Source: Hormiphora californensis (lineage: Eukaryota; Animalia; Ctenophora). Taken from it: a DNA stretch of 64,000 nt. How positions within the stretch are numbered: position 1 is the stretch's first letter; each line of letters opens with the position of its first letter. The notes beneath the pieces are model-generated. The model worked only from the letters and a program-made list of their open reading frames with translations, was not told where the DNA came from and did not search any database. The translations under genes were made by a program, and so were the position numbers. This document shows, in pieces, positions 1,520-57,266 of the stretch. The stretch spans positions 8,308,001-8,372,000 of the forward strand of contig CM035353.1 in NCBI GenBank assembly GCA_020137815.1, given 5' to 3'.

Positions 1520-3001
1520 CTGAACAAGTCTGGCACAAATGTTTGATATTTCTTTGTCTGTTAGTTTCCTCTGTTTGCTAGTCTTGGAGAGGTCCGAAAC
1601 AAATTTAGGGAGCTGTTTGACAGTCATTATACCGGTTCCTTCTTTATCCAAGCTGTCAAACACCCTGAGAGGGGAGAGGAAGTTGTCAAACACCCTAAGG
1701 AGAAGAGGGAAAGTGAAGGGGCGAGGATACTTGTTAATTTGCCCTAATTTGGGTTCCTAATTCAATCCAGGCGGGGAGGTTGGATTGAATTGAGTTGGTT
1801 GGCAACCTGTCGAAGTTTTCCTTCGTAAAGCGCTTCCTCAGTTTCAAGGCATTGTGAAACTTCTCTTCAACAGGGAATATAGACGCCATCTCATCAAGTT
1901 CTATCACTCCTGAAAACATGATCAACATGAATAATAGGGTTCCTTAAAGTTCCACTCAAATACTTCATCTCTAAAAGTAAAAGATCTCTGCCCTGCAGGT
2001 GGGGGACCCCGTTACCATTCGAATGGGTACACAATTACAAAGAATAGTACCAACTATTCAAGCAGTAGAACCTACCATTATCATCGGTGTCAAAGGTCCT
2101 GAAGAATGTATCGAGGTAGGTAACGTTGTTTAGATCCACTTTGAGAGAGTTGACCTTCATCATATCCCGCATAAAGTCTTTAGCTTCTATCATATTGGAA
2201 GAATGGTAGGTATTAGAAATTGGTTTAAATTATGAAACACACAAGTTTGAATTATGAAACAGATTATTCTTCTCATGTAATGGGGGAACCACATAATAAC
2301 AGTTGTATATACCAGTAAAATCCAGGTACCCACTAGAATCCTTATCATAGTGACACCATATCTCTAGGAAGTCTTGGCTGCTCAGCTGGGCCCCCATCTG
2401 TTGAGCCTGGATACTGTATACCAGCAGGAAGTTCTCTTCCGTGGGAATAATCTTGGACTGGGAGAGAATGGTTGATAGTGTCAGACGATTGAGAAGAAAA
2501 AGATACAGCGAGAAATAGTCTGAGAAAGGAGGGGTATAATTTGAATTAGAATTGGTAGCTTACCAATTCTTTAGCCTCTAACTTCCCATTTTGGTTGTCA
2601 TCGATCAAGGACATGATTTTACATTTGAACTTTTCATACTCGGCTTCATCAACCTCCTCCCCCAGGGTAACTTCTGTTAGATCCCTGAAATAAGTCGGGG
2701 AAGGGGGTAAGGAGGGGGTAAGTGGGTAAGGGGACAAGGGTACACTTTGGGGGTAAAGTTGGGGCTGTTTTATTTTCATACACTTCAGTACACCTCTTGG
2801 GCACAGAGTACTCAGCAGACATTAATTGATCTTCCAGTTCTCACAAACCTGAGGAATTGTTCTAATTCTGCAGTTTCTAGGAACCCGTTCTGATCTTTGT
2901 CATAATGGTCCCATAACCGTCTGAATTCTTTGCTGGTAAAGTGCTTCCTCTCATACAACTGGCACAAGATGGAGGACTTCCTGTTCAGAGACTGGGGCTT
3001 C
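1520..3001 (-). CDS. Calbindin/calretinin/secretagogin-like multi-EF-hand Ca2+-binding protein, constant exons (2849-3001, 2564-2684, 2313-2457, 2076-2186, 1807-1909, 1520-1664 or -1694); last exon uncertain
   Basis: Phase-compatible GT-AG exons encode EF-hands FRRLWDHYDKDQNGFLETAELEQFL, IDDNQNGKLEAKEL, FLEIWCHYDKDSSGYLDFTEAKDF, FDTDDNGVIELDEM and FDSLDKEGTGIMTVKQL, plus the family-typical linkers IIPTEENFLL and IFPVEEKF. Confidence 0.88.
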
Positions 3002-3563
3002 CTGGCAAGGGAGTAGAGTGTTAGGATACGATACAAAACTAATTAACTGGGAACTAAGTAATTGGTATCGTGGAAATGAGCTGAATCCAGTATCCACCCT
3101 ATATCAAGTGGAGTTATTAACTACATCCCTTGTTATACCCTTGTTATTGTACCACTATTGTACTGACAGGTGTCAGCTTGTGTTTGTTAATAAAATACAA
3201 GCTAGCATATCATAAGCATATTAACTACAATTCTATACGGAGCTGAGGGATATGTACTTTAAACAACTCGCCGATTGATGATACACGAAAATGTATCAGT
3301 ACTGTTATATATGTTTATAGAAGTTCGATGATATTGGGTAGAATGAAAATACGGGTATTTGAGGATACATTGAGGACACATTGAGGACACATTGAGGACA
3401 CATTGAGGAGTAGCTAACTGTAGATCCTAACTTTCGTTTTCAGACCTCACTCGGACCTCAATTAGACATCACTCAGACCTTACTCATCTGCCACACACGT
3501 GAGATGGATTGCAAACAAATAAACCCAGACCTAACCTATCAACTCCTCCTAAATCAGACCTAC

Positions 3564-3637
3564 CCATTGTCCTCCTGACTATGGCTTGACGCAATGATTT
3601 GAACTGACTGAACCCAAACAGCAAACTTTTTGAGCAT
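3564..3637 (-). CDS. Alternative first coding exon V1 of the EF-hand gene (MLKKFAVWVQSVQIIASSHSQEDNG)
   Basis: TTAG 5 nt before ATG, 74 nt open, phase-2 donor GG|GTAGGT. Confidence 0.65.
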
Positions 3638-4786
3638 TTTAACTAACGATTTGAAAAATAAACAAGATTTGAGATATTGATATTAGGGGTGGATCGTAAG
3701 CAGCAACTTATTCGACCAAGATTCAACCAAGACAACTTAAAAAGTAGGTTGTAAGATGAGCGATTAAACAAATTATTCTATAAACATTCGAGTGAAAGAG
3801 GACAATGCAATGATGCTAAACTTGGAGTTGGAAAATAGAAAGTAGAGGGGGAAGTAGAGAGGAGGGATAAAAAAGAGTGATAGAGGGAAAGTATAATCCA
3901 GGGAAAAGGATATCAAAGAGTGGCGAAGCGATCAAACTAAAAAAGAAGAAAGATAAAGAAAGAAAGAAAGAAAGAAAGAGATAGAGAGATAGATAGGTAA
4001 ATAGAGGGAGAAAAGACGACCAGGACGTTGTGGTAATCGCTGCAAGAGTTTGTTTGGATCGGTGTGGTGGCGTGTGGATCCTGGACACCTGCTCCCAACT
4101 TTTAGAGATGGAAGGAGAAAGAGGAGGGAGATGGAGGGAGAGAGGGAGATAGAGAGACTCTCTCTAAGAGAGAGAGTGGACAACGAACCGAATTGTGGCG
4201 CAATTAGATAAATAGTGAAGGAGAGTATCATGACTCAGATAAAAAAGAGATGGAGCTATGATAATAGAGAGACTGGAAGGCCGAAGGGAGAGGGAGGGAG
4301 GGAGGGAGGGAGAGTGAGAGAGAGATAGATCAGATAGAGATAGAGAGTCAGAGAGGGAAGAGAGACTATAGAGAGGGAAGAGAGGTAAAGGTCCAGTTTA
4401 TAATTATTATAGGTACACATCTCGGACGGGTGGTGACATGTTCTAATATACAGCTCTGGCTACTATTATCATAGCTACAGTGTAACAACAGATGTTGGTA
4501 CTACCTCATATTATATCCGATATATTATAATCTTTTTTAAACCACAAATAAAATCATTGGTATGTAAGTAAGGTCTAATGACAGATTCGGTTCATTCAAG
4601 TGAAGATTTTAAGTGACTGGTTACACATCGATTAAATCTCTCTTATATATCTCGTATGAAACTAATCTAGTCCTCGATTATAATGCACAGTGCGGGCACA
4701 GCTAGACACCCCCCCCTGTATTATTAATAGATGAGGGTTTCGCCGTTTCGGCCGAATAAAACCCGTACATTTCAGTTTTAACATAC

Positions 4787-4848
4787 CCTGAAGATTGCCG
4801 GGCTGAGCTGAGGAATTCCTGGACCACGTCCCCTGCTTCTGTTGCCAT
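4787..4848 (-). CDS. Alternative first coding exon V2 (MATEAGDVVQEFLSSARQSSG)
   Basis: ACAG 5 nt before ATG, 62 nt open, phase-2 donor GG|GTATGT. Confidence 0.7.
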
Positions 4849-4854
4849 GGTTAC
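4841..4854. promoter_or_regulatory. RFX X-box-like site GTTGCCATGGTTAC overlapping the V2 start codon
   Basis: Near-perfect match to the palindromic RFX consensus GTTGCCATGGCAAC. Confidence 0.45.
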
Positions 4855-5077
4855 TGTTATATGTGATTTACAGATTGGTACAACCTCAGTCAGTATATGT
4901 GTGACTTGCTGGGTACGGAATATATCACCCACAAATTTAAATCCAGAAAAAAAAGACCCTGCAAGCCGTTCTCGACAGAAGGAACTGTTACAAAATATGG
5001 TAAAACATACACAAGCTACCCTAACAAGCACTACTGCAGTTTAAATTTTAGCCTTGTTAGCCGTGGTGACAGCCCTA

Positions 5078-5318
5078 TACAAGCAAACCTCGATTTACCG
5101 GCACCCGATTTACCGGGACCTCGATTTACCGGGACCTCGATTTACCGGGACCTCGATTTACCGGCACCCGATTTACCGGGACCTCGATTTACCGGGACCT
5201 CGATTTACCGGACGAATAAATTTTCTCCAAGTTACGATTGTTCAACTCTAATACCGTGCACCTCAATATACCGTGTGACGTGTACCGTTCTGCTGGTCCG
5301 GTAAATCGAGGTCTGACT
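5078..5318. mobile_element. MITE with internal (ACCTCGATTTACCGGG)-type repeats; relatives at ~40696-40763, ~44110-44150 and ~45145-45170
   Basis: Terminal inverted motifs ACCTCGATTTACCGG ... CCGGTAAATCGAGGT; the same motif recurs at three other places in the window. Confidence 0.75.
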
Positions 5319-5445
5319 GCTGCTGATGCAGTATGTGCATTGTGCATGTATCATTCTAGGTTGTAGCATGACGTTCAGCTGGACCATGGGAGGTTTGTTT
5401 GTGTGTGTAGTAGTGTGTTGGTGTTGACAGAGCGATTGTAAAAGT

Positions 5446-5582
<137 letters not shown>

Positions 5583-5599
5583 ATGAAAAAATGGAAGGT

Positions 5600-6634
5600 T
5601 CCTGTCGTAGAAACGCACTGCACAATTATTAGAGACGCCCTGAGTATCAGATATAGCTACTTCGGGCCTAAAATATACCAAAAGTTCTACACAGACAGAA
5701 ACTACCCAAAACTAAGATTGTTTCTAGACGATAAGGAACAATGTGGGCCCTGGATAAATCCTCAATCCTGCAGATGAAGACATGTCCTACATAAGCACCA
5801 GGCACACTCATGTGTTAATGTCCCCATGGTAACATTACACCTCTCTGCTGCTACAATTTCTAGGCATCATTACTGCAGATGAGAGGGGCCGTGTTTTCAT
5901 GTGTCATTCCTCATCCGTGAAACTGAAGAACCCGGAAAATTGAAAGACTTTTAATTGCAAACGAAATTTCGAGACACTTCTATCTGAGCTGTAAGTTGCT
6001 GCTTCAACAAGAATAAATGGGTCATTCTCATGAAATTGACACCAAAATTTCAAACTTGTCCGATTTCGATAAAACTTATATCATCTGAAAGCACGTAATG
6101 GACTTAGTATTTCTGTATACGTGGACTTCATAATTATTGCATAATTAATATATGAGTATAAGCCGCGTACGTTACGCAACGACCGTACGTGATGAGTTAC
6201 AATGCATTTAATTAGCAATTGCTGTAAGATGACGACGTCCTATCGTAGACGTGCACAATATTAAGACCGCTCTGAGTTCGTATCTACTCCATACGTCGGG
6301 CCTACAGTTAATCACAGTCACTAACTATCGCCGAGAAACTACACCTAAACTAAGGTTTCTAGACACAAGGACAACCGCGTGCCCATATCCTGCAGATGTA
6401 CTGTCCTAATAAGCCCAACGCGGCACTTCAGTTTAATCCGTCTCAGTAACATTACACCTTCTCCGCTGTACACGTCTATGGCATCATTACTCAGATGAAG
6501 GCGAGGCATGATTAATTAGTGTCATTCCTCATCCGTGAAACTGAAGAACCCGGAAAATTGAAAGACTTTTAATTGCAAACGAAATTTCGAGACACTTCTA
6601 TCTGAGCTGTAAGTTGCTGCTTCAACAAGAATAA
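5600..6634. repeat. Local direct duplication: ~5620-6016 repeated at ~6254-6634
   Basis: The last ~115 bp (GTGTCATTCCTCATCC...CAAGAATAA) are identical; the preceding parts align only with many indels. Confidence 0.8.
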
Positions 6635-7621
6635 CTGCATTATGTTTCATAATGCTATGTTTCCCCGCCAACCTTTATTTTCATAACCATCTAATGTGAA
6701 GGCGGGACAGACATTTCCGATCATTTATGAATCACTCAAGCGGTATAGAACAAATCATTGTGTTTTAGTAGCACTAAATTGCGTGCCACATTGCGCGGCT
6801 CACATTTCCTGAAAACGTGCCATTGAAATATTTGATGCAGATGAAGGAGCAACAATTAACGTTGTCCCTCGCAACTGAGCGGGTTACGTTACAGCGTGAC
6901 ACTTCACTAGTATGTAAAATTGTCGAATTCTAAACCCCTATGCCTTTTTACAAAAGGCATCCGGGTGAATGCCTTCGGCATTCACCGGGCGGGGGAAATA
7001 AAAATAAATATCTACATTATGATAGAGGGGCAAGGGGACTAGTTCTAGGCGCTAGCTCCGTGTAAGAAGTTACCGATCTCCGCCTACACGCCTCCCCCCT
7101 CCCTAGCTCGAGGTGTGGGGGCCAGTGCAGCCTGTCAATACCAACCAATACAATCAATAATAACCGGCTGCTCAGTTAGCAAGTAAAACAAGACAGGTCA
7201 ACACAAACAATGCCGTAGCCTGCAGCAGAGTTTATCAACGTTGAATATGATGGTGTGGATTGTAAAGAAAACAAGGGGACTAATGAGCGGAACTCGGAAG
7301 ATAAATCCAAGATATTATTATTTTATGTAGCTGGGAGCGCTTTGTGAATTATTGATAGAATATATGAATCATAATTTCTTGTTCTAGTTCAGATGCTCCT
7401 GATGCTCCTGACTTCTAAGTCAGATGCTCCTGACTTCTACGAATAGTTCACTAGAAAGAAGATCAGATGTACAATTACAGAAAAAAGGAGGCAGTGAGTC
7501 AGAGAAAGAATCTAAAAATCCAACAATGACGACAGGCAGAACAGAAACGGCTGAGACCTGAGTACAATTTTGGGAACGATATCAAATCTGTCATCACAAT
7601 ATGAGATCAGAGAGGGTGAGA

Positions 7622-7626
<5 letters not shown>

Positions 7627-7675
<49 letters not shown>
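7627..7675. repeat. (GA)n microsatellite
   Basis: Direct inspection. Confidence 0.95.
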
Positions 7676-7678
<3 letters not shown>

Positions 7679-8089
7679 CGAGACAGGAAAAAGACATACA
7701 GACAGACATTACATGAGACAGATAGGTCAAAGCTTTGACACCAAGCAAGAGTGTGTTCCTGGCTATGTTGCTCATGTTTATAAGTACCAGGGTGTCAAAT
7801 TGACGCGTGTTTAGACTACTATACACATGAGCTATTATAACAGTAGCCAGAACATCAAATACTTGTGCGTCTGTGTAGGCTATAACCTGTTTAACTAATG
7901 TTGTAGAGTCCTAACACTACACAGAACAGGGAACCTTCCATCCGGGGACGGGGGATGAGGGACGGGGGATGAGGGATGGGCTTCCATCCTGTTCATATAA
8001 TCTCAATCCCACCACACAGAGATTGAAGTAGAGTATCATAGAATCTAATTCTACGTCTCTAATAGTCTAACCTATAAACAGGGTCTTAC

Positions 8090-8130
8090 CTGAGCGATAG
8101 AAGGTCCTCTGGTAGAAGATTAGCAGACAT
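8090..8130 (-). CDS. Alternative first coding exon V3 (MSANLLPEDLLSLR)
   Basis: AAAATG context, TAG 10 nt upstream, 41 nt open, strong phase-2 donor AG|GTAAGA. Confidence 0.7.
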
Positions 8131-9733
8131 TTTGTTAATTCTATATCAACAAAGTTGGTATCTTTTGTAAACACCTGGTTAACTATAGTTTGAAACAAAA
8201 ACACTCGGTGTGAGATAGATAAAAGTTGTTTCGTCACCCTTGCAAATAGATATGGGAGATGAATCAGGACTAAAATACACAGAAAAAGAGGACGCTGATC
8301 GAGGTCAACGTGTGTGCTATAGAAGCAGCTGTGCGAGTAGGCGTCGTGTAATAGCTAGTGTGTGCGGGGGGACCATTCACCAGAGAGGGGGTCATGTAGC
8401 GGTCAATGTGTACCAGCTGTACAACGTGTGTGTGTGTGATGTTGGGAATTTAGTGTGAAATATCTCACGTGTGAGAAATGCAGCACACAGTGAACATGAT
8501 AAATGAACTGATAAGGTTAACATACAAGAGATGCAAGATGTGAGAACTGTTCGATACAATGCAATGAGAGGGATCGCTGTATAATATAAACTCATTTGAG
8601 AATAGAGGCATGGGAAATTGTCATCAACTCATTATCATGGTTGGTATACCTCTCTCTCTCAGGAAACGTGTTGTATATTCATTAGACCCGTTAGATTGTA
8701 AGATCGAGTATAGGATCTGTGAAACAGCTGCTCCCTGTCATGTCCCTATAATTCACCTCTATTCAGCCTAACCACACAGCGTGACTTCTGATCTACTCAT
8801 CTCTATATAAGCAGCTACCTCTAGTTCCCCTAACTTGTGGTCTCAACGCAACAATCCCTCAATGAATACCATGAATATAGGCTTTCGGTTTTAGTATAGG
8901 CTGATTTGTGTGATAGAAAGATTCCATCGATTATACAAGGTGCCGTCTGGCGGCCAGACACTGTTTTGATCCTCACGCGAGATTGTGGTCAAATAGGGCC
9001 GCAGATAGACAAAATACTAATTTCCAACCCCCCCCCCCAGCGCGAGCGCTGGTCAACCATAGCCGAAGTTAAGATTAGACGACACGTGTAGTTTGAACCC
9101 AATCCCATCTTTCAATGACAATCTAACATATAGTATGTTAAGAGAACCTATAAGAGGGGTACAAGCACTAAAAGTAGACAAAACACGATGTAATATTGAA
9201 CTAAAGAATGATTTGTTGACTAAGTGGGGGAGGGGGTGGTCCCCGGTTAGTTCACAACAAAGAATGACCGCAAGTAGTATAGAACTAGTAGGGGATTACC
9301 ATGTATAAGGACCTGCATTTATTTAGCAGGCTCTGATCTCTATGCGAGCAATATAAAGATGCTAGTGTTTATCATTTATCAATGGCGCCTTGCTAGAGAG
9401 CTGCAGTATTTACCAGGGTATTGAAGGGCCCTCAATCAGCTCAGCCAACTAGAGATCGGTGACACACCGTGAGTATAATTATTGTTATGCTGTAATTGCA
9501 GAGAGAGAGAGAATATGAAGAGGCCGGCTCTGTACGTTGACCGTTGTCCGAGTTAATGAACAGATTTACAGATCAATTAATATTCGGTATATTATATACA
9601 GATTAGGTTCATAGTCATAATATTAGGACAGCGAATGCAGCCCTGTTATATTGAACCAACGCTAACAGTGAATATATGAGAAAATGCATGCTCTTTACTT
9701 TTACACAAGCATAGATTTAATTTATCTACTTAC

Positions 9734-9795
9734 AGGATATCGAGAAAACAACCAGAATTAGGAGTCGAGTCATCTGATGTAGATGATGTGGCCAT
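9734..9795 (-). CDS. Alternative first coding exon V4 (MATSSTSDDSTPNSGCFLDIL)
   Basis: TCTCCAG 6 nt before ATG, 62 nt open, phase-2 donor CT|GTAAGT. Confidence 0.72.
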
Positions 9796-9935
9796 GTTGA
9801 TCTGGAGATGTTAACTATAGACTGTTGTTATAGAGGAAATAAGTTAGTTCGGAAATTCTCTCGATCATCGCTCAACCGACACAATTAGTGGGCTATATTG
9901 CTATTATAATGGGCAGATTGGGAGACAGAGAGAAG

Positions 9936-10150
<215 letters not shown>

Positions 10151-11351
10151 AATATTGCAATATATCATGGCATGGAATTGGAAGGTAGTGCAGATCATAC
10201 AATGTGACTACAAACACACACACATGCATTGCATTTCTAATGGAAATTCTAGGAAAAGAAACTGAGATTAAAAGTTTCATTTTACAAACTTTCGGAACTG
10301 GCTAGTGTCTCTCAGCAAACTTGTTGATTGAGAGAATACAAGACTTCTAGTGCAGCAAAACTACAATTCAACAATCGATATGTACAGAATGTTTGAACTA
10401 AAACTGACCGGGTTGTGGGTATGATTTCAAATAAATCTGTATCAACACACGCCACACACTGGTTCACTCACATATACAGGGCTGCATGTACAGTAATTTC
10501 ATGTGGTGCAGCAATCTGATGAATAGTTTAGTAATGCTGGAAATGCTGCAAGATTGAGCTGCCTAGAGAGAAGTTACTAGACAGCTGAAATATCATCATG
10601 TGTTGCAGAGTCCAATATAGCGACTAATTTCAATGTAATGGATAAGCCAGGAAGTGGAACAGCCCTTATATCTTCAGTCTGTCCAAGGCATGGGGTTTCC
10701 AAGCCTGGTTGTGGGTCTTCCCGTACTTCCTAACATTGGTACCAATACCAAGTTGCAAAGGGTCAAGGGAAGTATAATAGAAGTGGCCAAGAAAGCTACA
10801 AAAACAAAAGATTTAGTTTCAAAAGAGTGTGAGAAGCTCGACTTTATGACATATGAAGCTTCCTATTGTGAGATGCAAGGAGCACTACTAATAGCACACA
10901 GGCTGTAGCTGGAACTGAGTTCGCAGTTCCTTCTCTCACTCTCTCAGTATCCTGCTTCATACCTCTCTGTCTCTTACTCTCTCAGTATCTCACTCTCTCT
11001 CTCCATGTATCTTTCTCGTCTTCTCTTTCTCCTTCTCTTCCTCTATCTTTCTCCCATATCTCTATTCTTTTTCATGAACTATTGGTACCCGTCACTGATT
11101 CATTTCTGCGAGAAAACAGAACTGATGAAAGGTATAGATTCCCCCTAGAAGTACTGCACAGTTCATACACACATTTTACAGCTTGCTCGACCCCTCTCTC
11201 ACCGACCCTCTCTCTCTCACCGACCCTCTCTCTCTCACCGACCCTCTCACTGCAGAACAGCACACACGTCACACAACCTACACGGACAGTGACAGCTGTT
11301 ATACTGCAGCATTGTTCGTATAGTACTACACGAGCTTGAATTATGTCTTAC

Positions 11352-11356
11352 CCCAT
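11352..11356 (-). CDS. Alternative first exon V5; coding part is only ATG GG, giving MGKPQS... after splicing
   Basis: Acceptor TTTTGCCTCCAG 39 nt upstream (11396-11397); ATGGG|GTAAGA phase-2 donor. Confidence 0.55.
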
Positions 11357-12246
11357 CCCCCCAAGTGGAAGATTAAAAGGTATGTAGAAAGTCACCTGGA
11401 GGCAAAATCAGGATATAAATTACTTTGTACTGCTAGTTCGCGTGACCGAAGGGCGAATACAATTCTATAAACACACGCTCGAGAGTACAACTAATTACTC
11501 AGTTCGATTCCACTAATGAGAGTCTACTAGATGCTGATTAGCTGCCATAATCTAGATCTTACAATGCATGCATATATCAATAAAGTAAAGTAAAGTAAAG
11601 GTAACGACGGCTAAAACTCTTTTCAAAATATATCATCACAGTTAGATAAATCCTAGTTCATCTCTAAAACTGCGTTTCAACCACCAATTTACTTGTGATA
11701 TCAGTTAATAGATATCATCTTCTCTGCAGTAAGAGCTTTATTGCACATTTTACTGTGACGTATAAGCTGTCAAGACTGTGCTTCTATCTATCTAGATAGA
11801 AGCCTGTGCTTGAGTAGTTAAAAGCTTTCAAGACATAGCACAGTGTGTAAGTTGCAAAACACAGTGTAACATATGGGGACATAACCTGCCGCGACCCCAT
11901 CTAAGCGCACCCATGTCATGGCGCCGCCATACCTAGGGTACATAACATACTTCTGTACACATCCCCATGCATCTACAGAAACAGGTAGTTAACTTCACTG
12001 TGCCACTTTAGAGTGTGCCATTGAAACCAATTGATAGTAAAAAGCCGGGGGTTATGGGATTTTAATATCCACTGCCCTATATCCACTACCCCCTAAAAGT
12101 AACCACTCCCTAAACAATTAAGTAACCACTAAGCATGAAACCAGTTTGAAATACCATGGTGGATAATGGATCTGTCTGCTGTACATCTGCTGTACATCAT
12201 GTAGACAACATATTGTACATGTAGACAACATTGTACATGTACTTAC

Positions 12247-12332
12247 CCAGGGGTGTCCTCAACTAATTCCTGGGGTTGTTGGGGTTTACCACCCATCAAG
12301 GTGACAAAGCGACCCCAAATAGAACGGAACAT
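12247..12332 (-). CDS. Alternative first coding exon V6 (MFRSIWGRFVTLMGGKPQQPQELVEDTPG)
   Basis: TTCCTCTTAG 5 nt before ATG, 86 nt open, phase-2 donor GG|GTAAGT. Confidence 0.75.
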
Positions 12333-13814
12333 TGTCGCTAAGAGGAACTTGTCAGATATGAATACACCAACTCATTAAAAGCCAAGGAAAGGAAAACTAA
12401 GGTATTGGGAAACATATCCCGCGACACATATTGAATAAAGATATCTTATAGAGATATATTGGATACAGAGATATCTATTAGTTACGTCACTGCAAGGTGT
12501 CTTTAGGAAAATTGAATATTAATGAGCTGGATATACAGAGATATAGCTGAATATATAAAACTCTTAAAAACATATCTAAAGGTCATTAATGAAACAAGCA
12601 ATCCAAAAAGAAGCAAAGCAGCTCCGATATAACACAGAGCTGTGATAAGTTGTACAGATAAAGTAACTGATAAAATGTCTTGGAAGGTATATAGTTGTTT
12701 GATGGCAAAATACTAGCAGCCATGAACAGACATTTTAAAATTGGATTATGCACACACACGTATTTCACAAAACAGCTCTCTATATATTGGACATTGGTAG
12801 TAGGTCATGTTCTTTCTCGACAGAACCGAGTCTGATTTCATGCTTTTGTGCTGCATTTTGCCGTGATATGACATTATGGTAGTTTAGTGGTAGTGGTAGT
12901 ATAGCGGTAAAAGGAAGCCTGGCTGAGCTTCACCTATAAACATAAAGCCTGGCTTGAAAATGGATGTGGAGTAGCTTGACCCTACCGCGTGTAAAAGGTA
13001 ACATTCTGTTGAGTACCTACATGCAGACATTCCTACGAAAGGATGGTCTTCACAATGGGGCCATGTGACTGATGAGGTGTCAGGAGTCGAACTGACCCAC
13101 TCTCGTGCTCTTAGCTCAGAGCGAGGAAGCATCGCTCTGACAGAGAAGGGAGGCTTATCTTTTGGAGTAAAGGGTTACTCAACAAGCCTTATCAGCTGTA
13201 TGGGGAATCAACGAACCCAAGAATCAAGGAATGGGGATGGTATGAATTTTCACACCCTAGAAAGTTTCATATTCCATATTTAGTATTGCCATGCTACACA
13301 GTCTGTCGTTCACGCGATGAATCGCCTCCGCTTACGTTTGCTCTTCAGGCTCACGTATAGTAAGCTTTGAGTCGCCTGACACTGTGTTCGTGTATGAACA
13401 ATTCAAAGTAAGCCCACAGAGCCGACACTCGACAGACTGGAACCATATCAATTGTTACCAAAGAATTCATGACATATTCACTCGATCTAATAAGTTTAGG
13501 GAACTAAAGAAATGCTCTAAAAAGTGAGTTGTCACAGAGAGAGAGAGATACAGAGACAGAGAGACAGAGCGGGAGAGAGATAAAGAAGCATTTTTAAGGC
13601 CATTGAGCCTAATAAGGAACCTACTATGCACTATCATGAATCATTCCCAATTTATCAATTTTTACATTACTGTCTTTCAAAAACTTCATTATCAAATGCC
13701 CCATAAGAGTGAGGCGGGGAATGACCCAGCCCCAAAAACAGTGATAAAAAGGGATGGGCGTGTCCCGGGAAAGGGTTTCCAGGGTTTCCCCAAAATTTTT
13801 AAGTAGGCCTATGC

Positions 13815-14450
13815 GGAGGGGAAAAAAGGGGGTGGGGGTAAAAATTGCCCCCGAGAGCGAGAGAAAAGAGGGGAGGAGGAGGGGGAGAGAGAGAGACGAG
13901 AGAAAAGGGGAAAAAAAAGAGAGGGGAAAAAAGGGGGGAGGGGGAAAAAAAAGGGGGAAGAAAAGGAAAAGAGAGAGAGAGAGAGGGGGAGAGAGAGAGA
14001 GAAAAGGAGAAGGAAAACGGGAGAGAGAGAGAGACGGAGAGAAGCGAGAGAGAGAGAGAGAGAGGGGAGAGAGGGGAGAGAGAGAGGAAAAGGAGAGAAA
14101 GAGAGAGGAGAGAAGAGAGAGGAGAGAGAGGAGAGAGAAGGAGAGAATGAGAGAGGGGAGGAAAAGGGGAAAAGGAGGAGGAGAAAAGAGAGAGAGAGGA
14201 GAGGGAGGGGAGAAGAGGGGGCGAGGGGAATTTGAGGTGGGGGGTGGGAAAAAAGGAGGAGGAGAGAGAGAAGGGGGGGAAGAGAGCAGAGAGATGGAGA
14301 AGAAGGGGAGAGGGGAGAGAGAGAAGAGAGAGAGGGGAAAGGGGGAGAAAGGAGAGAAAAGGAGTATTTTCCCTCTCAATTTTTAACCCTCTCCTCTACC
14401 CCCTCTTTTCTCTTTTCTATCTCTTTCTCTCTCTCGTTTCTCTCTTTTGG
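13815..14450. repeat. Purine-rich low-complexity tract, probably a poorly resolved (GA)n region
   Basis: Irregular G/A runs with no consistent unit. Confidence 0.8.
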
Positions 14451-14724
14451 GAGAAATAAATCATCAACTCTGATGGGGACAGTTTTTACAAAACCCGATT
14501 GTTTCCGAGGTTGATAAAATTAGAGGGGCGTTTAAAAAATTTTTTTCTAGGGAAAAAATATAGGTATAAGTAAGAATTAGAAACACCAACCTGCTTTGTA
14601 TAATAATTAGGTATAGTACTTCCCCAAAAACAGCTAATGAACAGTCGCGTTTTTAGGAACATTGCTACTAACATTGTGACTAACACTGTAACATTGTGAC
14701 TAACATTATAACATTACTACTCAC

Positions 14725-14882
14725 TGCATGGGCTCCTCGTCTGAGAACTCATCATCCTCTGGATCCTCAGGATCGTCATCCCGTAAATACAACTGTAACG
14801 AGTCATCACCAGGGGGAGGGGATGTAGAGGAGAACAGGCCACTGAATGTTCTAGTTAGTCGGGATAACGCCTTGTTGAACAT
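14725..14882 (-). CDS. Alternative first coding exon V7 (MFNKALSRLTRTFSGLFSSTSPPPGDDSLQLYLRDDDPEDPEDDEFSDEEPMQ)
   Basis: CTGCAG 3 nt before ATG, 158 nt open, phase-2 donor CA|GTGAGT. Confidence 0.78.
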
Positions 14883-17433
14883 ATCCTGCAGAGATTAGTA
14901 ATTGTGCAGTGACTTGATCGACCCTGTTTCAACTTTGTAAAACTGTTTGGAGGCCGGTACGATAGTTAGACTATTAGACAGTCTGAACAAATATATCATG
15001 TAATCTCTGAGATCTCTATCTATAGTATCTCAAGCAAAGTAAAAAACACTAGGGACATGTATTAGAGCCGCTCCATTATAGGGACATGTATTAGAGCCGC
15101 TCCATTTGGATCGTGATGAGGGTCACATTAGGAGCTTCTCAGGTGGCATTGGAGTTCAACATAAAATAATCCATCATGAAGCATACATGATCGAGGAGAG
15201 AGAGGGACTGAGAGGGGAAGAGAGGGAAATAGGTACTGAAAGGGTGGGAGAAAAATGAGGAAAGTGAGAATATTCGATCGAAGCACGATAGGATTTTGAA
15301 GGAGAGAAGAAAGATGTAGTACTGGTTAGAGGGGGAATTGTAATAGGATAATTCTATGCCCTAATAAGGAAATTAATGGGTGATAACTTAAATGCTAAAC
15401 TGGTTTTTGGCTCTAGAAAGTTCTCGCTATACCTATAATTATATTTTGCTAATCATCTTCTTTCCAGAAAAATCTGTCTGGCGGTGCCGGAGCGCACTGT
15501 CGTGAGAATCAAAACGGGGTCTACAGGACACTCCAGACAGAGGGAAATTGAGTGAACTTGTAAATGTGCGGAGTAGCTCAAAGTCAAAGGCATGGGAGGG
15601 CCAATTAACTGAATCAGTCACTTTGCTTCAAGAATCAGAACTAAAGAGAGAAATTGGCAATCCGCAGATGAACTTCGCACTACGTAAATTCCCGCAGTTG
15701 CAGGGAGAACATAATTACGTTGAAACAGGACGGGAGATCGAGAGAGCTGATCTCCCGTGCTGTTTCATCGTCAACTATCTCGAGACATGTCACAACCAGA
15801 TAGTATTCTGGTTGTTTTGTGACGTCACACCTGACAAACAGAATGCTGTCACATCTGATCTCCACCGACTTAATTGTCAAGTGTTTAGAGAACTGCAAAT
15901 ACAGCTTGTAACGTCAAATATGGGAACTATAGAGAATGAATTAACACACCGTATAATATTATAATTGCCTGCGTTTATTGAGTAAAGTATTGATACAGAG
16001 GAACTAAATACTGGGGGGAGAGATAAAATGGGGAAGTTGCACAAGAAATGTTTCAAGCAAGTGAAGTTAATGTTATGTACTTATCAGATAAGATAAGTTA
16101 TCTTGAACGGAGCGAGATAAAGGATGATAAGAGATATGTCACCTTGCTGCACAAATCAATCCCACGAAGACCCAATCTCTCTCGCAAGAGACCCCATCTC
16201 TCTCAAGAGACCCCATCTCTCGAAGGTGAGCTGCTGACGTCAAATCATCTACGCACTGTCGAGACAAGACGGAGAACAGCAAATTGGCGACGCCTCTTAT
16301 ACTGCAGCAGCACCAACCAGTGTCTCAATTTATGCTGGTTTGCATTGCTCGACCCTCGATCTCGCTGTGATCATGGCCCGGTAAATACAAATATCGTAAA
16401 GGATGGTTATAACATGACAAATGCTGGTGTAGGGGGGGATGAAAAAGTTCAAAGAGACACTTGTGGGTTGTGGTTATGACATTGACAAGCAGAGTGTAAC
16501 ATATAGAGAGGAAACATAATTTAAAATATTAGCTGGCAAGTGGCATAAGACATTCAAAGGGCACGCCAACAAATTAACCCTGAATATACATTCACATAAC
16601 TGCAATTCCATGTTATAGAATGTAGTATATAGCTTGTCATCAATTGAATATTTTCACAGTTTTGATCAATATAATATGTGTACTTGTGATGCACAACAAG
16701 TGCAGGTGTAATATTATTAAAAGTTAAGTGTCAGTTGGCAAGACTATCTTAGAGTTAGAGAAAGGGAGCAATTGATTCAAATTATAATACAAGCCCGATT
16801 AAGCACTGAAAAACACTGAAAAAGCTCACAGTTTAACCATATCAAAGAGGAACACAATAACAGATAACTGAGAGTATCAGAAGACATGGGAGAGAGGACT
16901 GGCATGAAAATGTAGGTATAGCTGTAGTTAGCACTAGGCCACTAGAATTATACATTTACAAGGTATTTCGCGGTTGGACGGAAACGGCCTAAATTATAAT
17001 TCACTTTTTTCTCTTTTTAGCAGCAACAAATTCGCACTCTGTTATTCTGTCCCCTGTCTCTCTCCCTCTCTGTTCCGCCCTGTCTCTTTCTTTCAGTGTG
17101 TGTGTCATGCCCCTCGCTCTCTCGCTCTCTCCCTTGCGTCATACTCATATCCGTATAAAAAGTTATGGATCTCAAATGAGAGCTGAGTATGAGAACTTTC
17201 AATACAAGTGAGAAATACGGACAATTTGATGTTCTGTTTATGTTAGTAACATCATGTTACAAATACACTGCAGCAGTTACTGTACTGGTGGTCAAATAAC
17301 TAGACAATGACATGACAAGAGACGAGGCGAAAGGACAAAGGTTAAAGAGCCGAACTGTGAGAGAAAAAGAGGATTCTAGAATCACAGAACAAGTGAACAC
17401 ATTTTCTACATGACCCCTGATTACACTTTGTAC

Positions 17434-17499
17434 ACTTACACTCGCGCGGTCACGTGACACCGCGCAGGCCCCTTCATCTTGTACAGTGTCACGTGACCG
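17434..17499 (-). promoter_or_regulatory. Paired inverted GTCACGTGAC E-boxes next to a GTAAGT donor; candidate promoter or leader exon of the EF-hand gene
   Basis: CGGTCACGTGACAC (17447-17460) and its reverse complement (17486-17499); minus-strand GTAAGT at 17439-17434. Confidence 0.4.
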
Positions 17500-18215
17500 T
17501 GCACTCTGTCTGTGTCACTCCAGCTGTTACAAACTCAGCTACCTGCTGTTCCAGTTTCACATGGTAGACACGCAAGCTTATTTCAATTTCATCAACATCC
17601 TTGCCGCCATGTCAAGGCCATTTACATTTAGCAGGTTCAACCATGGCTGAATTGTCATTGGCAAAGAACCAGGCAAAAATATAGCCACTGGCACTGGCAA
17701 CTGAGCTTCTGTCACCACGTTATGTGTACCCGTTCTAACCGTCCCACCGAATAATGGCAACATTAAGCAAGATTCCGGTTAAAGTTTTGGGCTGAGACAC
17801 AGATTGGCGAATACCCGCGGGTGTATTGATACCCTTTGCTACACTGTCCCTCGCCAACAGAGTGGCATGTCAATGATACCCCTATAGGACAAATCGACTC
17901 AAGTAACCCGCATTACTTGGATAAGGTTGGATAAAACAAAAGTTTCGGAATCTTGTTCAATGCTGCCAGAGTAGTAGTGAAAAGTCAAAAGACGTTGTTT
18001 TTTAAGAGGAAACTGAAAATCTGGCATACATTTCTATCATACAAAACTGTACAAAACTAACAATTTTATTATTTACACTCGCACATTTCAAAAGCTGTAT
18101 ATATTGTCTTTGTACATTTTCACACACTTGTTCATGGTTCACACACTCTGATTGTCACTGATTGTCACTGGGGGCCCTTACTCAACAAGGGGGCCCCTAT
18201 TTTTTAGAAGCTTCC

Positions 18216-21200
18216 TCAGATGATTTTAAGGATTGGTTTGGCACTACCCCACTGTAGGGAAGCATGTGATGAGGGGAGATTGAAGGAGGTTATATCAGTT
18301 CCATCTCTCTCGTGTACAGGACACTCCATCTTGGTAGTATTGCCCTCCTCTAACTGGTTCAACTGAAATGGGGGGGGGGGGGTAGTAGGGACCCTACAGC
18401 TAGAGTTAGAGAGGTTAGCCAATGAACATTATCAATGTGGGGGATTCTAACCAGTACACATGGACGCAGATGACATTCATATTTCCAAATGTAGAATGAC
18501 AACGTTTATCACAGAAACAATATGTATTTACCTCGGTGGATATGGGTGTCAGTAGTATAACAGGAAGTGGGAATGGTGGAGCTGATGGAAGTGTAGGATA
18601 CATTATGTTCTGCATGAAGTCCCAGCCCCCATTGATCAACTCCAGCCCCTCAATATACAACCCTGGAGTATCTTCAGATCCAGTAGTAGATGTGGCAGCC
18701 ATTAGGGACATGACTCGAACCTTGAAGGTGACCTGACTGAGAGATGTCCCACTAGTATAGGCCCAGTCCTTCAGGTAACTCAAGCAGGAAGTGTTTGGGA
18801 CGATGGAATGTTGACAGGGAGTATATCAGTCTAGTCTGGTCCTCCCCTCCTATCTGATCACTAGCTGATGAACTATTCCTATCTCCCTATACTCAAGCTC
18901 ACTGTGGGTATCTCCACCTAACCATCTTAGCAAGTCTCCACAGTTTATCAGATAGATCAGACACCCAGTTACCCAGACCTTGAACCGTTACCTCCCATGT
19001 TGGGGGCACCTTATTACTGGTGAGGTACTGCCAGATGGTGTCATTATGGAACACAACCCGCTCCCCAGCAAACCCCTCCTGTAGCTTGATCAGATCACTG
19101 GTAACCGTCCCCAGGAGGGTAGTATAGTACTTGGTCTCATTCTCAAAGAACGTTGAGAGGGCAGTGTGTCCCCGTGGGCCGCTAGATCTGGGTGGGAGGG
19201 GTAGGGCTGAGAGAATGTAGTTTGTTACAGTTGCCATATCCAGTCCCTGGGTGGGTTGTTGGAGTTTTGCCAGGGAGAGGCTCCCCTTGGATATACTAGG
19301 TAGGACGGCCACTTGAGGCATGCCCGTCAGGAACTTATCAACCCCTTGGGACACCAACAAAGCGTCCTCTGTAGTACTACACTTAGCACCATATGTCACC
19401 CTCCTAGCTAGTGCGGAGAGACACTCTGTGACATCAGATGAGGTCTTGTTGGATAGCTTCTCAAGCAGCTGAACGGTAGTCAGTAGGTCACAGTTATCCC
19501 ACACTGGACCACGAAGGTTGTGGAGGTATGAATGGAACTGTGCTGCTGAGGTTATAGCAGCTGTATCCATGGTGATCTCACCACCCATGATGCCCCTACA
19601 CCACCGGTCCAATCTAGTGGATAATCCCTCCTCTCCATCCCTGTGGATGTCCACGCTGAATCTGTTTAGCAGGTACTCAGGTAGGGTTAGTGGCTCGTAT
19701 AGGGAGGATACCAAGATGATAGCGAAATTATCATGAACCCGCTCCGGCATTGCACCCCTTCTGTTCTCCATCACTTTGGTAATATCATCTAGGAGCTCAA
19801 CAAGGGCCTCTGACCAGTGTTCCACTAGATGACAGTGTGTCAACACAACTTGGTACCCGTACCTGACACCCTGGGAGAGAAGGTGAGCTCCCTCCAGCTG
19901 GAGAGACTCACTAAGCAGGGACACCACCCTGACATCACCACCTCCTTGTTTCAGTGTCATTATCACATCAGGAACATTCTCACCCAGTATCAACACTGGC
20001 ATCATTCCAGATTGATCAGGTGTTGGGGTGGTTTTAATAACAGTGCTGGTATCTACCATCTCAGTTCCTAGCTCGTACATCACCAGATCTCGTAGCACCT
20101 TGTGCATCTGGCCGGGTCTACAGAAGGCCCAGAGTAACACCCGCTGGGTGACGGTCAGGATATGGATTTCATCCCAGGGGGAGGGTTCCAGGAGGACCGG
20201 GGAGAGAGTGAAGTATTCCTGGTATAGAGCCTGGTTGGCCTGGATGTGGTCTTTTAGACCAGCGAATGTGGGGAGAGATTCAAGGAGGTCTAGTGATTGC
20301 CAGTCGCTACGGGCTATCCAGTTGGGAACCTGCAGGGAAGGGTATTACAGAGTTTGAAAAGTAGCTAATTTTTGATTTTTGTTGTTTTTTAGCTAAATTG
20401 GACAACATTATTATATTGGCTGACTAAAGCTTCTCTATACATACCTGATCAGGCCGATAGGGGAACTGGTGCAGATCGTGATTTAGAAGCAGGGCATATT
20501 CCTCCTTCGTCATTCGTCCTGACATGAGCATTAGTCGTAGGGCGAGGAGGAGAGGGAAATAACCGATATCTGTTTTCCCCATTTTCATTTTGAGTTTCTT
20601 GAACACTTCCTGCTGTAGCTCTCTCTTCAGTTCCTCAACCTGAGATTTAGTGGTTACACAAAGATAACACACAGGTAACACCCTCCCGTGGTTACACACA
20701 GATTACACACTTAACCATGCAAGATAGAATAAAACACAGCCCTTTTGGGCCCGGGGCACTATCATGATATTATGACTTTTATTACCTTAGAAGAGACACT
20801 AATATTGAGTCCCGAATAAGATCTCTGTCTCCCGAAGAGCTCACTAAGGGTCTCAGTCACATCAGATAACTTGAAATCGTAGTGAAAGGAGAACCGGTTC
20901 AGATCACGTAAGACATCAGCCACCATAATGCCATGATGAGATAGTTGGATTAGTTCATTTGTTTTCTCACGGAGACCGGATAGCCGGTAGTTAATTTCAG
21001 AGATGGCCTGTTCTTCATTCGATATCAACTCCTCTGATTTCTAGATGGAGTTAAACGTGGTAATATTATGTAATATTAGAGCTAGGTGAGAGGTCGGGAT
21101 GAGCTATCTAGCTTACAATTCAGTAATTCACACACGTGGGATTCATTTGATTGTCTAAACCATTGTCTAAACATACCTTTACTAGAACGGGTAACTCAGT

Positions 21201-47168: not shown

Positions 47169-47320
47169 ATTTCAGTCATTCTTCATCACTTCAAATCTCT
47201 GTTCATGTGCTAATATAACAGGAGGTGTGAGTTGACAAGGTGTCAAGGATATATTCATTATTGAGTGGTTAAAATCGTGGACTTGGAGAGACCGTGAGAA
47301 AAAGGCCCCCACAGACCGGA

Positions 47321-47334
47321 GTTTCCCCAGTAAC
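47321..47334. promoter_or_regulatory. X-box-like motif GTTTCCCCAGTAAC ~150 bp upstream of the DNHD1 ATG (copy at 49277-49290)
   Basis: Resembles RFX GTYNCY-NN-RGYAAC; position is typical of ciliary gene promoters. Confidence 0.4.
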
Positions 47335-47499
47335 CGCGCACAAACGGGGGTACTTTCATTTTGGGAGAGTTCAGAAAATTGAAGGAACTGGGGGAAATGG
47401 ATCTTCTAGCAAACAAAATCTTTCTCTCTCACGTTCTTTATGTAATGTATAATAAAAAGCACGAAATAATTTTGTCTCAATTCAATAATCAATTCAAGT

Positions 47500-47636
47500 T
47501 CAACTGATCATTTGAGCCACTATACTGTTCTATAGTTTCCCCTTTGAGAGATAGCACAGCTATGTTTCCGTCAGCTCCTTTGGTGCAGTAAACTGGAAGG
47601 TAACGGTAACGTTGTGTCCTGGCTCTACCACACCCT
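47500..47636 (-). pseudogene. Orphan decayed duplicate of the CFAP74 terminal exon
   Basis: Matches 49632-49791 but has internal deletions in the 3' half. Confidence 0.8.
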
Positions 47637-47679
47637 GAAATGAAAGAAGATTAATCTTAAAGAATAATCTTAAAGAAGC

Positions 47680-48167: not shown

Positions 48168-48533
48168 ATGAAAATGTTGATTGTTCTCTGTGCAACTCTG
48201 CTCGTGGCGGCCCATTGCGGTGACTGTACGAACAACAAGCTTTCTCTCTACCGGAAGGCTGGCCAGCGGGGAAAGGCCATAGTCCTGAATGAGGATATAG
48301 AGGCACTCTCCGCCACTAATTTCGACAACAAGGTCTCTTCTTACTATGCAGAATGTGGAAACTGGGAGTGCTACAAGAAAAAAAACTACAAAGGGAAGAC
48401 AATTAAAATTCGAGAAGGAGCATCCGGAGGATTTGAAGAAAACGATGAATGGAACAATGCAATAAGCTCTTGCAGGCTAGTGGAATTTAAATCAGAAAGA
48501 AGTTTTTGGGATTGGATTTGGTCTTTGGGATAG
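48168..48533 (+). CDS. Secreted single-domain beta/gamma-crystallin-superfamily protein (121 aa), intronless
   Basis: Signal peptide MKMLIVLCATLLVAAHCG; two Greek-key motifs (LYRKAGQRG...FDNKVSS and GNWECYKKKNYKG...WNNAISSCR); TATAAA at ~48127. Confidence 0.85.
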   Translation: MKMLIVLCATLLVAAHCGDCTNNKLSLYRKAGQRGKAIVLNEDIEALSATNFDNKVSSYYAECGNWECYKKKNYKGKTIKIREGASGGFEENDEWNNAISSCRLVEFKSERSFWDWIWSLG

Positions 48534-48721: not shown

Positions 48722-49120
48722 CTTACCAGGGATGTGTTTTATGTCAGTGAGAGGGTTGCAGATATCTTTCTTAGGATCATCTCTGCCCCTACGCCTGCTA
48801 TCTCTAACGCATGGCAGTAGTACCAGTACCTCTTCTCCAGGCCGTCTCATAGCCCGCCATCTCGAAGGCAACACTCGGTAGAGATTCTCTCAGATCGGCC
48901 ATCGTCAGTAGTGCTACCTGGGGGAGAGAGAGAGAGAGAGAGAAAGCTGGGGTGTGAATGAGGGGCGACTGGGAAATGAAAGCTGTTCTTGGTATGCAAT
49001 TATCTCATGTACATTATCTGAGAGCAAGTAATCAGGGTGTGGATGGAGAAAACATACCATGTACTGACCTTCTCCTCCTCGTGGTTTTGTGGAAGATCAA
49101 ACTGCTTTCATCTATTCCAT
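48722..49120 (-). pseudogene. Collapsed duplicate of the DNHD1 5' region
   Basis: Consecutive matches to ~42470-42580, ~46312-46430, ~46572-46610 and ~47138-47168, in the same order and orientation. Confidence 0.88.
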
Positions 49121-49631
49121 ATTTCAGTCATTCTTCATCACTTCAAATCTCTGTTCATGTGCTAATATAACAGGAGGTGTGAGTTGACAAGGTGTCAAGG
49201 ATATATTCATTATTGAGTGGTTAAAATCGTGGACTTGGAGAGACCGTGAGAAAAAGGCATGCCCCCACAGACCGGAGTTTCCCCAGTAACCGCGCGCAAA
49301 CGGGGGTACTTTCATTTTGGGGGAGTTGTCGCGCGCCACGTGAACCAATGCCGGGGAGGTGTGACTCATACTGCACATGGGACACAAGCCATGTGCAGCA
49401 TCAAAGATTGTAACTGCCAAACAGAGTGTTGTTGATATAAATAAGGTTTTTCATTACTGAGGGAAATGGAATCACGGTCAGAGGGGGCATACATTGATTT
49501 TGACAACAGAAAATTGAAGGAACTGGGCAAAAATGGATCTTCTAACAAACAAAATCTCTCTCTTACGTTCTTTATACAACTATAATACAACGCCTATAAT
49601 ACACGAATTAATTTTGTCTCAATTCAAGTAT

Positions 49632-57266
<7,635 letters not shown>

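Follow-up and report, generated by a model that had tools for sequence, protein, structure and literature searches.

A putative array of alternative first exons upstream of a calbindin/secretagogin-like EF-hand gene in the ctenophore Hormiphora californensis

Results

A constant EF-hand core on the minus strand

Within the window (a 64,000-nucleotide stretch of Hormiphora californensis contig CM035353.1, positions 8,308,001–8,372,000), six minus-strand exons between positions 3001 and 1520 encode a calbindin/secretagogin-like core. Constant exon 1 (2849–3001) is entered in phase 2, lacks a Met and carries EF-hand loop 1; loops 2 and 3 lie in exons 2 (2564–2684) and 3 (2313–2457), loop 4 starts in exon 4 (2076–2186) and ends in exon 5 (1807–1909), and exon 6 (1520–1664) bears loop 5. 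Across the six exons, 259 codons are read without a stop, and four canonical loops are followed by a degenerate fifth. A search for a last coding exon beyond 1520 gave no significant match, and an open read-through frame at 1373–1520 showed only non-significant similarity.

The acceptor at 3001 and the missing Met of the first constant exon, both part of the original prediction, were confirmed in the sequence. The junction agrees with ortholog isoforms (see below) and with a contig of another ctenophore, which is spliced into exon 2 and breaks away from the window sequence at 3002, beyond which it bears a different in-frame 5' part. The matching contig of RNA run X1 differs from the window at 26 positions in 136 nt, and sequence comparison indicates that this run probably stems from a ctenophore other than the window species. 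Over 14460–22040, run X1 yielded three repeat fragments only, none of them on the exons of cassette C7 or of a dynein-like gene (both described below), an absence that carries no evidential weight.

With Mnemiopsis orthologs as queries, all seven PDB matches at E≤1e-10 were calbindin, secretagogin or the zebrafish EF-hand protein 2be4 (calbindin, E 6e-35; secretagogin, E 9e-30), the nearest solved relatives being 6fie, 2be4 and 6jlh. The top ten rows of a fold search with the Mnemiopsis ortholog comprised the same proteins, at TM-scores of only 0.24–0.51, and the predicted model of this ortholog has helix pairs consistent with six EF hands. The window core shares 35–39% identity with the named calbindins and calretinins in the comparison, and the ctenophore proteins form a clade on a long branch in a tree of 28 rows that contained no named secretagogin. 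Judged by its loop sequences only, the core may bind Ca2+ and act in buffering or sensing.

Seven candidate first exons upstream of the core

Upstream of 3001, seven short minus-strand cassettes had been proposed as first exons, and at the stated coordinates each of them indeed has an ATG followed by an open frame that ends at a phase-2 GT donor. We number them C1–C7 by rising coordinate. All seven have a purine at −3, and the nearest AG lies 5, 5, 10, 6, 39, 5 and 3 nt upstream of the ATG, respectively. C1 (3564–3637) encodes 24 residues with a Met-Leu start and a net charge of +2 and is a likely first exon, as is C3 (8090–8130; 13 residues), which has the strongest donor (11.2 bits) and is the only cassette whose inclusion as an internal exon would also keep the frame. 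We consider the acidic C2 (4787–4848; 20 residues) quite likely to be a first exon and the Ser/Thr/Asp-rich C4 (9734–9795; 20 residues), which has a competing phase-1 donor at 9753, reasonably likely to be one. C5 (11352–11356) contributes five coding nucleotides, so that the joined product begins Met-Gly and has Ser at position 6; it has a strong acceptor 39 nt upstream (10.2 bits) and a donor of 5.3 bits, and its status is uncertain, the chances for and against being about even. C6 (12247–12332) encodes 28 basic residues with a Met-Phe start and Trp at position 6. C7 (14725–14882) encodes 52 residues, with a predicted basic amphipathic helix followed by a Pro-containing, acidic linker; its donor scores poorly (−0.6 bits). 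The peptides had been described as unrelated to each other, which is true of their sequences, but three of them share a Met-Phe or Met-Leu start followed by a basic stretch.

Two weaker minus-strand candidates fared poorly by their splice-site scores. At 13017–13030, the donor (4.9 bits) lies 4 nt from a stronger phase-1 donor at 13021 (7.5 bits), and this candidate is probably due to chance and very unlikely to be a first exon. The candidate at 16143–16216 starts in a short tandem duplication, has acceptors of at most 3.7 bits and showed no clear match among outside N-termini; it, too, probably arose by chance and is an unlikely first exon.

Orthologs carry several N-termini on the same core

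In Mnemiopsis, five distinct proteins (six accessions) under one locus tag, ACHWQZ_G015187, differ only upstream of the junction, and the Bolinopsis ortholog is represented by six distinct proteins (seven accessions) that differ only before the same junction; these counts come from 15 of 19 cluster members, and the isoforms of both lobates are GenBank/RefSeq database annotations. A second cluster look-up, again with 15 of the 19 members, returned no further isoform. The window core is 78–80% identical to these orthologs. In the lobate genes, the third residue of the constant exon is a Met, which gives rise to a bare isoform; the window gene lacks this Met, as do P0026 and P0027, the outside sequences with which it groups (94/96). 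The original prediction had overlooked this difference from the lobates.

The N-terminus of Mnemiopsis KAL5252334 (51 residues before the junction) matches C7 at 17 of 28 positions (pairwise E 2e-08), with an anchored score of 69 for C7 and 21 for the next peptide in the window. C6 ranks first among 1040 scorable ATG peptides of the window against a profile of five outside N-termini (17.6; next, 10.0) and is identical to the outside sequence P0002 at 9 of 27 positions. The C7 and C6 classes are common to the window gene and its lobate orthologs, and these matches make C7 almost certainly, and C6 very probably, a conserved first exon. A 35-residue ORF from ENA contigs, P0005, contains nothing but a C6-class N-terminus and stops at the junction, which makes this N-terminus a likely separate exon in another species as well. 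Against P0026, C2 gives the best Met-anchored match, though only narrowly (21 versus 19), and against P0027 it shares first place, but BLAST produced no alignment to P0027. Among the 17 outside N-termini, none matched C1, C3, C4 or C5, the C5 peptide being too short for homology comparison.

Further searches broadened this picture little. A search with C7 only gave no candidate among proteins of 28–91 residues, a profile-free search of representatives recovered one full-length ctenophore protein and exon fragments but no new N-terminus, and the ESM Atlas held no usable match for the C7-class helix. A metagenome scan returned seven loci, two of them ctenophore transcripts and five distant matches (28–30% identity), which were set aside.

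Several candidate first exons can thus be joined in frame to one acceptor, as seen in the window sequence, in the ortholog isoforms and in the conservation of C6 and C7. The predicted layout of variable first exons on a constant core is borne out by the isoforms in two annotated ctenophores and by these two conserved cassettes. We suggest, at a probability of roughly 0.55, that first exons are used in a mutually exclusive way to put different short N-terminal tags on the EF-hand core, and that each of them likely has a promoter and a spliced-leader acceptor of its own.

Conserved N-termini as possible address tags

C6, C7 and perhaps C1 would then provide basic amphipathic helices on a flexible linker that serve as address tags. 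The model of the Mnemiopsis C7 isoform shows a helix at residues 2–17, an unstructured linker and the EF core, with low confidence for the N-terminal helix (pLDDT 52 and 42, residues 1–20). The hydrophobic moment is 0.82 for C7 and 0.61–0.84 for C6 homologs, as compared with a background 95th percentile of 0.66; C6 of the window reaches only the 85th percentile (0.51) and C1 the 83rd. The conserved tags are predicted to tether the core to membranes or organelles. C5 could provide a form that is myristoylatable or minimal and stands in for the bare, Met-started isoform of the lobates, and C2–C4 may yield soluble or partner-specific forms. Against a role as address tags, N-termini of the NatC type do not generally decide localization in yeast (PMC3626706).

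The tags of C7 and C6 might instead be cleavable mitochondrial targeting sequences, which would make some isoforms mitochondrial Ca2+ buffers. Phe2, the basic amphipathic start and the lack of acidic residues within the first 25 (C7) or 22 (C6) positions fit the yeast signature given in PMC10482271. However, the C6 homologs P0002, P0006 and L002 have an Asp at position 4. Moreover, presequences diverge fast, which makes 61% identity between distantly related ctenophores high. We regard mitochondrial import as possible but doubtful. It is opposed to the address-tag step only and is compatible with the proposed splicing.

The phase-2 class and chance

Most of the cassettes might be chance AG-ATG-GT arrangements picked for their phase, only C6, C7 and perhaps C2 being real. 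We counted cassettes with a strict filter that took no account of phase or strand and required an A at −3, a YAG no more than 12 nt away and a best donor of at least 6 bits; its thresholds were chosen after the cassettes had been seen. Counts for plus-strand phases 0, 1 and 2 and minus-strand phases 0, 1 and 2 were 1, 2, 0, 1, 2 and 6, respectively. The last class had a shuffle mean of 0.76 and none of 300 shuffles reached 6; one of its six members is an internal ATG of C1 (3564–3637), leaving five that are independent. C1–C4 all pass, which argues against a chance origin, while C5 and C7 fail. Under nine filter settings, P for the minus-strand phase-2 class ranged from 0 of 200 shuffles up to 0.275, the enrichment being much weaker under loose filters, and minus-strand phase 1 was often close behind phase 2 (6 versus 7; 9 versus 10). 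The proposed control by phase and strand places the class above chance with the strict filter; the excess fades under loose ones.

A chance origin is favored by the expected number of minus-strand phase-2 cassettes (1.3–3.7 under moderate settings, about 7 under the loosest), by unlisted phase-2 look-alikes at 15719–15768 and 5272–5354, and by the four of seven cassettes without an outside match. Yet most of the 5–6 N-termini of each lobate ortholog likewise lack a cross-species match. On balance, it is unlikely that only two or three cassettes are real. The claim of at least seven first exons is nevertheless not shown, because clear outside support exists for only two of the seven, with a weak hint for one more (4787–4848) and none for four.

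Spliced-leader acceptors and the choice of first exon

The AGs upstream of the cassettes are likely spliced-leader trans-splice acceptors, a point missed by the original prediction. At least 56% of Hormiphora Iso-Seq reads carry a leader (PMC8527503). Two homologous transcripts from other species were retrieved, L001 and L002, which belong to the C6 class, and both have leader-like 5' ends: the end of L001 equals the leader end AATTTGAG of PMC8527503 and that of L002 is similar. The leader joins 116 nt ahead of the ATG in L001, which has 3 upstream ATGs, and 124 nt ahead of it in L002, which has 1; a spacing of 3–10 nt between AG and ATG is therefore not conserved, and an AG so placed could act in cis. 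Three short leader motifs revealed no leader gene in the window.

In the mechanism that we favor, with separate promoters and leader acceptors, transcription would start upstream of one cassette and the leader would be trans-spliced onto the AG of that cassette, because no donor precedes it. The donor of the chosen cassette would join 3001, and downstream cassettes would be left out, as most of their AGs make weak cis acceptors and including these cassettes would break the frame. The nearest AG scores at most 3.0 bits in four of the seven cassettes (47 modelled cis acceptors: median 10.8, 10th percentile 5.5), and entry from a phase-2 donor at the nearest AG leads to a stop or frameshift in six of seven. 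The strong acceptors at C5 and C7 (10.4 bits at the latter) fit poorly with skipping by weak AGs. Promoter choice might differ by cell type.

Alternatively, a single promoter, or operon-like read-through from a co-oriented gene, could give one long precursor on which the choice of leader acceptor picks the N-terminus. The high share of leader-bearing reads and the ends of L001 and L002 would suit such a precursor, as would a dynein-like gene on the same strand that stops at 18216, 3.3 kb before C7. However, an upstream cassette donor on this precursor should capture a downstream AG in cis. The cassettes also lie 0.9–3.3 kb apart, whereas the median modelled intron measures 123 nt, a spacing that seems to allow for separate promoters. 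We consider a common precursor improbable.

In another alternative, slightly less probable still, the isoforms would share a non-coding first exon, joined in cis to one of several mutually exclusive coding second exons, and the AGs would be ordinary acceptors. Such an exon could be accommodated in the long UTRs of L001 and L002, which contain upstream ATGs; the donors at 15831, 15950 and 16318, upstream of C7, lack a phase-2 ATG; and the strong acceptors at C5 and C7 also suit this reading. Against it, four of the seven AGs are weaker than 90% of modelled cis acceptors, and no shared exon was identified. It is very improbable that leader-acceptor choice on a single precursor, rather than promoter choice, acts as a phylum-wide address switch among at least seven N-termini, with one or two of these directing a six-EF-hand Ca2+ buffer into mitochondria.

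Discussion

Alternative first exons are a known class of mechanism, and isoforms of the present gene are already in the database annotations of two species. Our literature search found no paper on the first-exon array of the window gene and no such array for the calbindin/calretinin/secretagogin/calbindin-32 family; a check of PMC12221973 for six terms related to trans-splicing or alternative promoters found none of them. By sequence and fold, the nearest solved relatives of the Mnemiopsis ortholog are calbindin-D28k, calretinin, secretagogin and calbindin-32. Mnemiopsis ACHWQZ_G015187 and Bolinopsis calbindin-32-like/calretinin-like X1–X4 are orthologs with the same junction and several N-termini. 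The sea-urchin isoforms described in PMC3296734 differ internally. A Secretagogin/Calbindin transcript has been reported from Mnemiopsis nerve-net neurons (bioRxiv 10.1101/2021.03.31.437758) and may derive from the ortholog of the window gene. Gene-level expression counts would merge the isoforms of such a gene.

UGT1A, clustered protocadherins and plectin had been put forward as analogies. The variable exons of UGT1A and the clustered protocadherins are duplicated, domain-sized paralogs, while plectin has short targeting exons. The window cassettes, which are 5–158 nt long, dissimilar and not duplicates, are unlike the former two; the likeness to plectin holds, and together with the KChIPs it is the closest. 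An origin by protocadherin-like duplication was rejected, since the peptides are dissimilar and, of at least 60 repeat families, the 20 largest include none that pairs two cassettes.

Vertebrate KChIP1–4 (KCNIP) resemble the window gene in having an EF-hand core with short, unrelated N-termini from alternative first exons. They use alternative promoters and first exons, and their N-termini set membrane association and differ between neuron types (PMC3973911). We infer that the variable N-termini of the ctenophore gene could likewise diversify one Ca2+ buffer or sensor by cell type or subcellular address. The KChIPs, however, belong to the NCS proteins, have four EF hands and bear myristoyl, palmitoyl or transmembrane tags, whereas the window gene has a calbindin/secretagogin-like core, conserved tags predicted to be basic amphipathic helices and first exons that are likely leader-trans-spliced, and its likeness to the KChIP design would be convergent. 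If our reading is true, conserved N-terminal tags let ctenophores diversify a single calbindin-family gene, where vertebrates use paralogs.

A calbindin-family core entered in phase 2

The constant core of the calbindin-like gene comprises six minus-strand exons modelled from sequence (3001–2849, 2684–2564, 2457–2313, 2186–2076, 1909–1807 and 1664–1520), which join into 259 stop-free codons with five EF loops, the first four canonical and the fifth degenerate. Its first exon lacks a Met and is entered in phase 2 at 3001. Used as query, the 60-codon frame of this exon matched three proteins at 80–84% identity, whose clusters include Bolinopsis microptera "calbindin-32-like/calretinin-like" isoforms and Mnemiopsis leidyi ACHWQZ_G015187; these matches mark the window as ctenophore DNA, and the core is 78–80% identical to the lobate proteins. 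The nearest solved relatives of the Mnemiopsis ortholog are calbindin and secretagogin, by sequence search and by a fold search with low TM-scores. According to the available part of PMC3296734, six EF-hands define the family, and the isoform differences it describes are internal only. The last exon was not found within the window and may lie beyond its start. Just past the sixth exon, a tandem array with a unit of ~32 nt occupies positions 1–800.

First-exon variation in other ctenophores

Database annotations hold five distinct proteins for Mnemiopsis, under one locus tag, and six for Bolinopsis; by eye, these isoforms share the same core and vary only upstream of the junction equivalent to 3001. 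The Bolinopsis gene appears in two accession blocks (XP_063677998 and XP_063678408) with an identical X1 protein in both, which points to duplication either of the locus or in the assembly. In addition, a contig from run X1, probably from another ctenophore, continues into exon-2 sequence, departs from the window sequence at 3002 and carries a different in-frame 5' part beyond that point.

We compared the minus-strand cassettes with 17 outside N-termini. C7 (14725–14882) is identical to KAL5252334 at 17 of 28 positions, with an anchored score of 69 versus 21 for the next ATG peptide of the window. C6 (12247–12332) ranks first among 1040 scorable window peptides (17.6 versus 10.0) when scored with a profile that was built, after the likeness had been noticed, from five outside N-termini resembling it, the C6 class; pairwise, it shares 9 of 27 residues with the homolog P0002. 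C2 (4787–4848) is weakly similar to the N-termini of P0026 and P0027, homologs that also lack an internal Met and form a group with the window protein (support 94/96). C1 (3564–3637), C3 (8090–8130), C4 (9734–9795) and C5 (11352–11356) had no match among the 17. P0005, a 35-residue ORF from ENA contigs, consists of a C6-class peptide alone; as its longest contig and that of an exon-2 fragment both measure 133,883 nt, this peptide is likely a separate exon in that source as well. The protein P0025 and its cluster mate P0004 differ in their C-termini, which suggests alternative last exons too.

We regard a variable-first-exon architecture as real and common across ctenophores, with a probability of about 0.93. 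Of the seven cassettes, we judge two to be well supported, four probable and one a toss-up, and we consider the weaker candidates at 13017–13030 and 16143–16216 likely due to chance.

Cassette anatomy and frequency

The ATG, open frame and phase-2 GT donor of the original prediction were present in all seven cassettes upon inspection. Serial inclusion is ruled out by frame for six of the seven, so the cassettes must be alternatives. Splice matrices were trained on sites of the sequence-modelled dynein-like exon chain and the six constant exons (48 donors and 47 acceptors), with five doubtful donors and six doubtful acceptors left out. Cassette donors scored 5.3–11.2 bits (training median 7.9), except for that of C7 (−0.6).

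Counting cassettes by phase and strand, as had been proposed, gave a mixed outcome, with an excess of the minus-strand, phase-2 class under some filters and none under others. A plain consensus yielded 12 such donors with an in-frame ATG, versus 1, 8, 7, 8 and 6 in the remaining five classes, while two looser definitions gave no excess. When candidates were filtered by acceptor and start context, six of nine settings gave enrichment of the class at P ≤ 0.03 and the other three did not (P = 0.075, 0.23 and 0.275). All four settings of the best-donor mode showed enrichment, with none of 300 shuffles reaching the observed count; the strictest setting retained five independent cassettes (C1–C4 and C6) versus 0.76 expected. 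As the thresholds were set after the cassettes had been seen, this enrichment supports the class rather than each member.

Several repeats lie in the first-exon region. An identical 11-mer with a sense-strand AG inside occurs shortly upstream of C3 (8178–8188) and C4 (9810–9820), either by chance or as a putative trans-splice or promoter motif common to both. A 119-nt direct repeat of 99% identity (5901–6019 and 6519–6637) sits within a longer, more diverged duplication, and a 16-nt repeat is present in seven copies at about 5090–5210.

Selection of first exons

Separate promoters would be the simplest route to first-exon choice. Alternatively, acceptor choice on a single precursor might pick the first exon. 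According to the available text of PMC8527503, a trans-spliced leader ending in AATTTGAG is common on ctenophore mRNAs, which would give a reason for the AG ahead of the ATG in first exons. This leader end begins L001 and a similar one begins L002, homologous transcripts from other species that both encode C6-class N-termini. In both, over 100 nt separate the leader junction from the downstream ATG, so the exact trans-splice acceptors at the cassettes are putative. As cis acceptors, four of the seven cassette AGs are weak, which would favour their being skipped; C5 and C7 are at odds with this. A shared non-coding exon preceding the cassettes might likewise take the place of separate promoters.

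Predicted roles of the N-terminal tags

The C7 peptide has a hydrophobic moment of 0.82, the highest among the region's ATG peptides, and a net charge of +3; C6 reaches 0.51 and its homologs 0.61–0.84. In the predicted structure of the Mnemiopsis C7 isoform, residues 2–17 form a low-confidence helix, joined to an unstructured linker, that gives no indication of packing against the core. Gly at position 2 with Ser at position 6 is a myristoylation pattern; C5 would yield this combination, and the C5 form may replace the bare isoform started from an internal Met in lobates. The accessible part of PMC3626706 places NatC-type starts (Met-Phe, Met-Leu) in amphipathic membrane-targeting helices, e.g. 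in Arl3, and states that such a start does not signify membrane targeting as a general rule; that of PMC10482271 finds them also in mitochondrial presequences. We favour tethering to a membrane or organelle rather than import, given the Asp at position 4 of C6 homologs and the good conservation of C7. The full mechanism, with the N-termini as address tags, has in our view slightly better than even odds.

Neighboring genes

A divergent dynein heavy chain-like gene (minus strand, 18216 to at least 33681; Pfam MT, Dynein_heavy and Dynein_C) lies upstream of the calbindin-like gene on the same strand and ends 3.3 kb upstream of C7; judging from the translation, the exon ending at 18216 is probably its last. 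Its exons appear to extend past 45000. Among them lie a plus-strand RNase H-containing retroelement fragment (33748–35064) and, apparently nested antisense, an intronless plus-strand ORF of ~350 residues (37931–38983) that contains several hydrophobic segments, resembles a GPCR by eye and has no Pfam match; its ATG is preceded by an AG at 2 nt, as in the cassettes. Two long inverted-repeat elements (about 22060–22910 and 39330–40230) resemble non-autonomous transposons by eye, the latter with mirrored tblastn matches at 39636 and 39971. Several exons appear locally duplicated (about 46300–47640 and 48790–49800, by eye). Further along are a small plus-strand beta/gamma-crystallin-domain ORF whose start is hydrophobic and signal-like (48168–48530), a CFAP74-like Ig-domain gene (52600–57266, minus strand), a gene of the tubulin-tyrosine-ligase family whose open frame spans 1.5 kb (57880–59349, minus strand) and, by eye, a DDX39/UAP56-like helicase gene (61151–64000, plus strand); a short run of degenerate telomere-like hexamers (59560–59617) separates the last two.

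Comparison with known systems

The likeness to protocadherin and UGT1A loci originally drawn does not hold, as the cassettes are not duplicated, domain-sized exons. A search of the open literature, with subscription papers outside its scope, turned up no paper on first-exon variants of calbindin-family genes, in ctenophores or elsewhere; the available part of 10.1101/2021.03.31.437758 has one line on nerve-net expression of such a gene in a ctenophore. In its workings, the arrangement comes closest to the KChIP family, in which alternative promoters give rise to variable N-termini that, according to the accessible text of PMC3973911, set membrane association and are used in a cell-type-specific manner.
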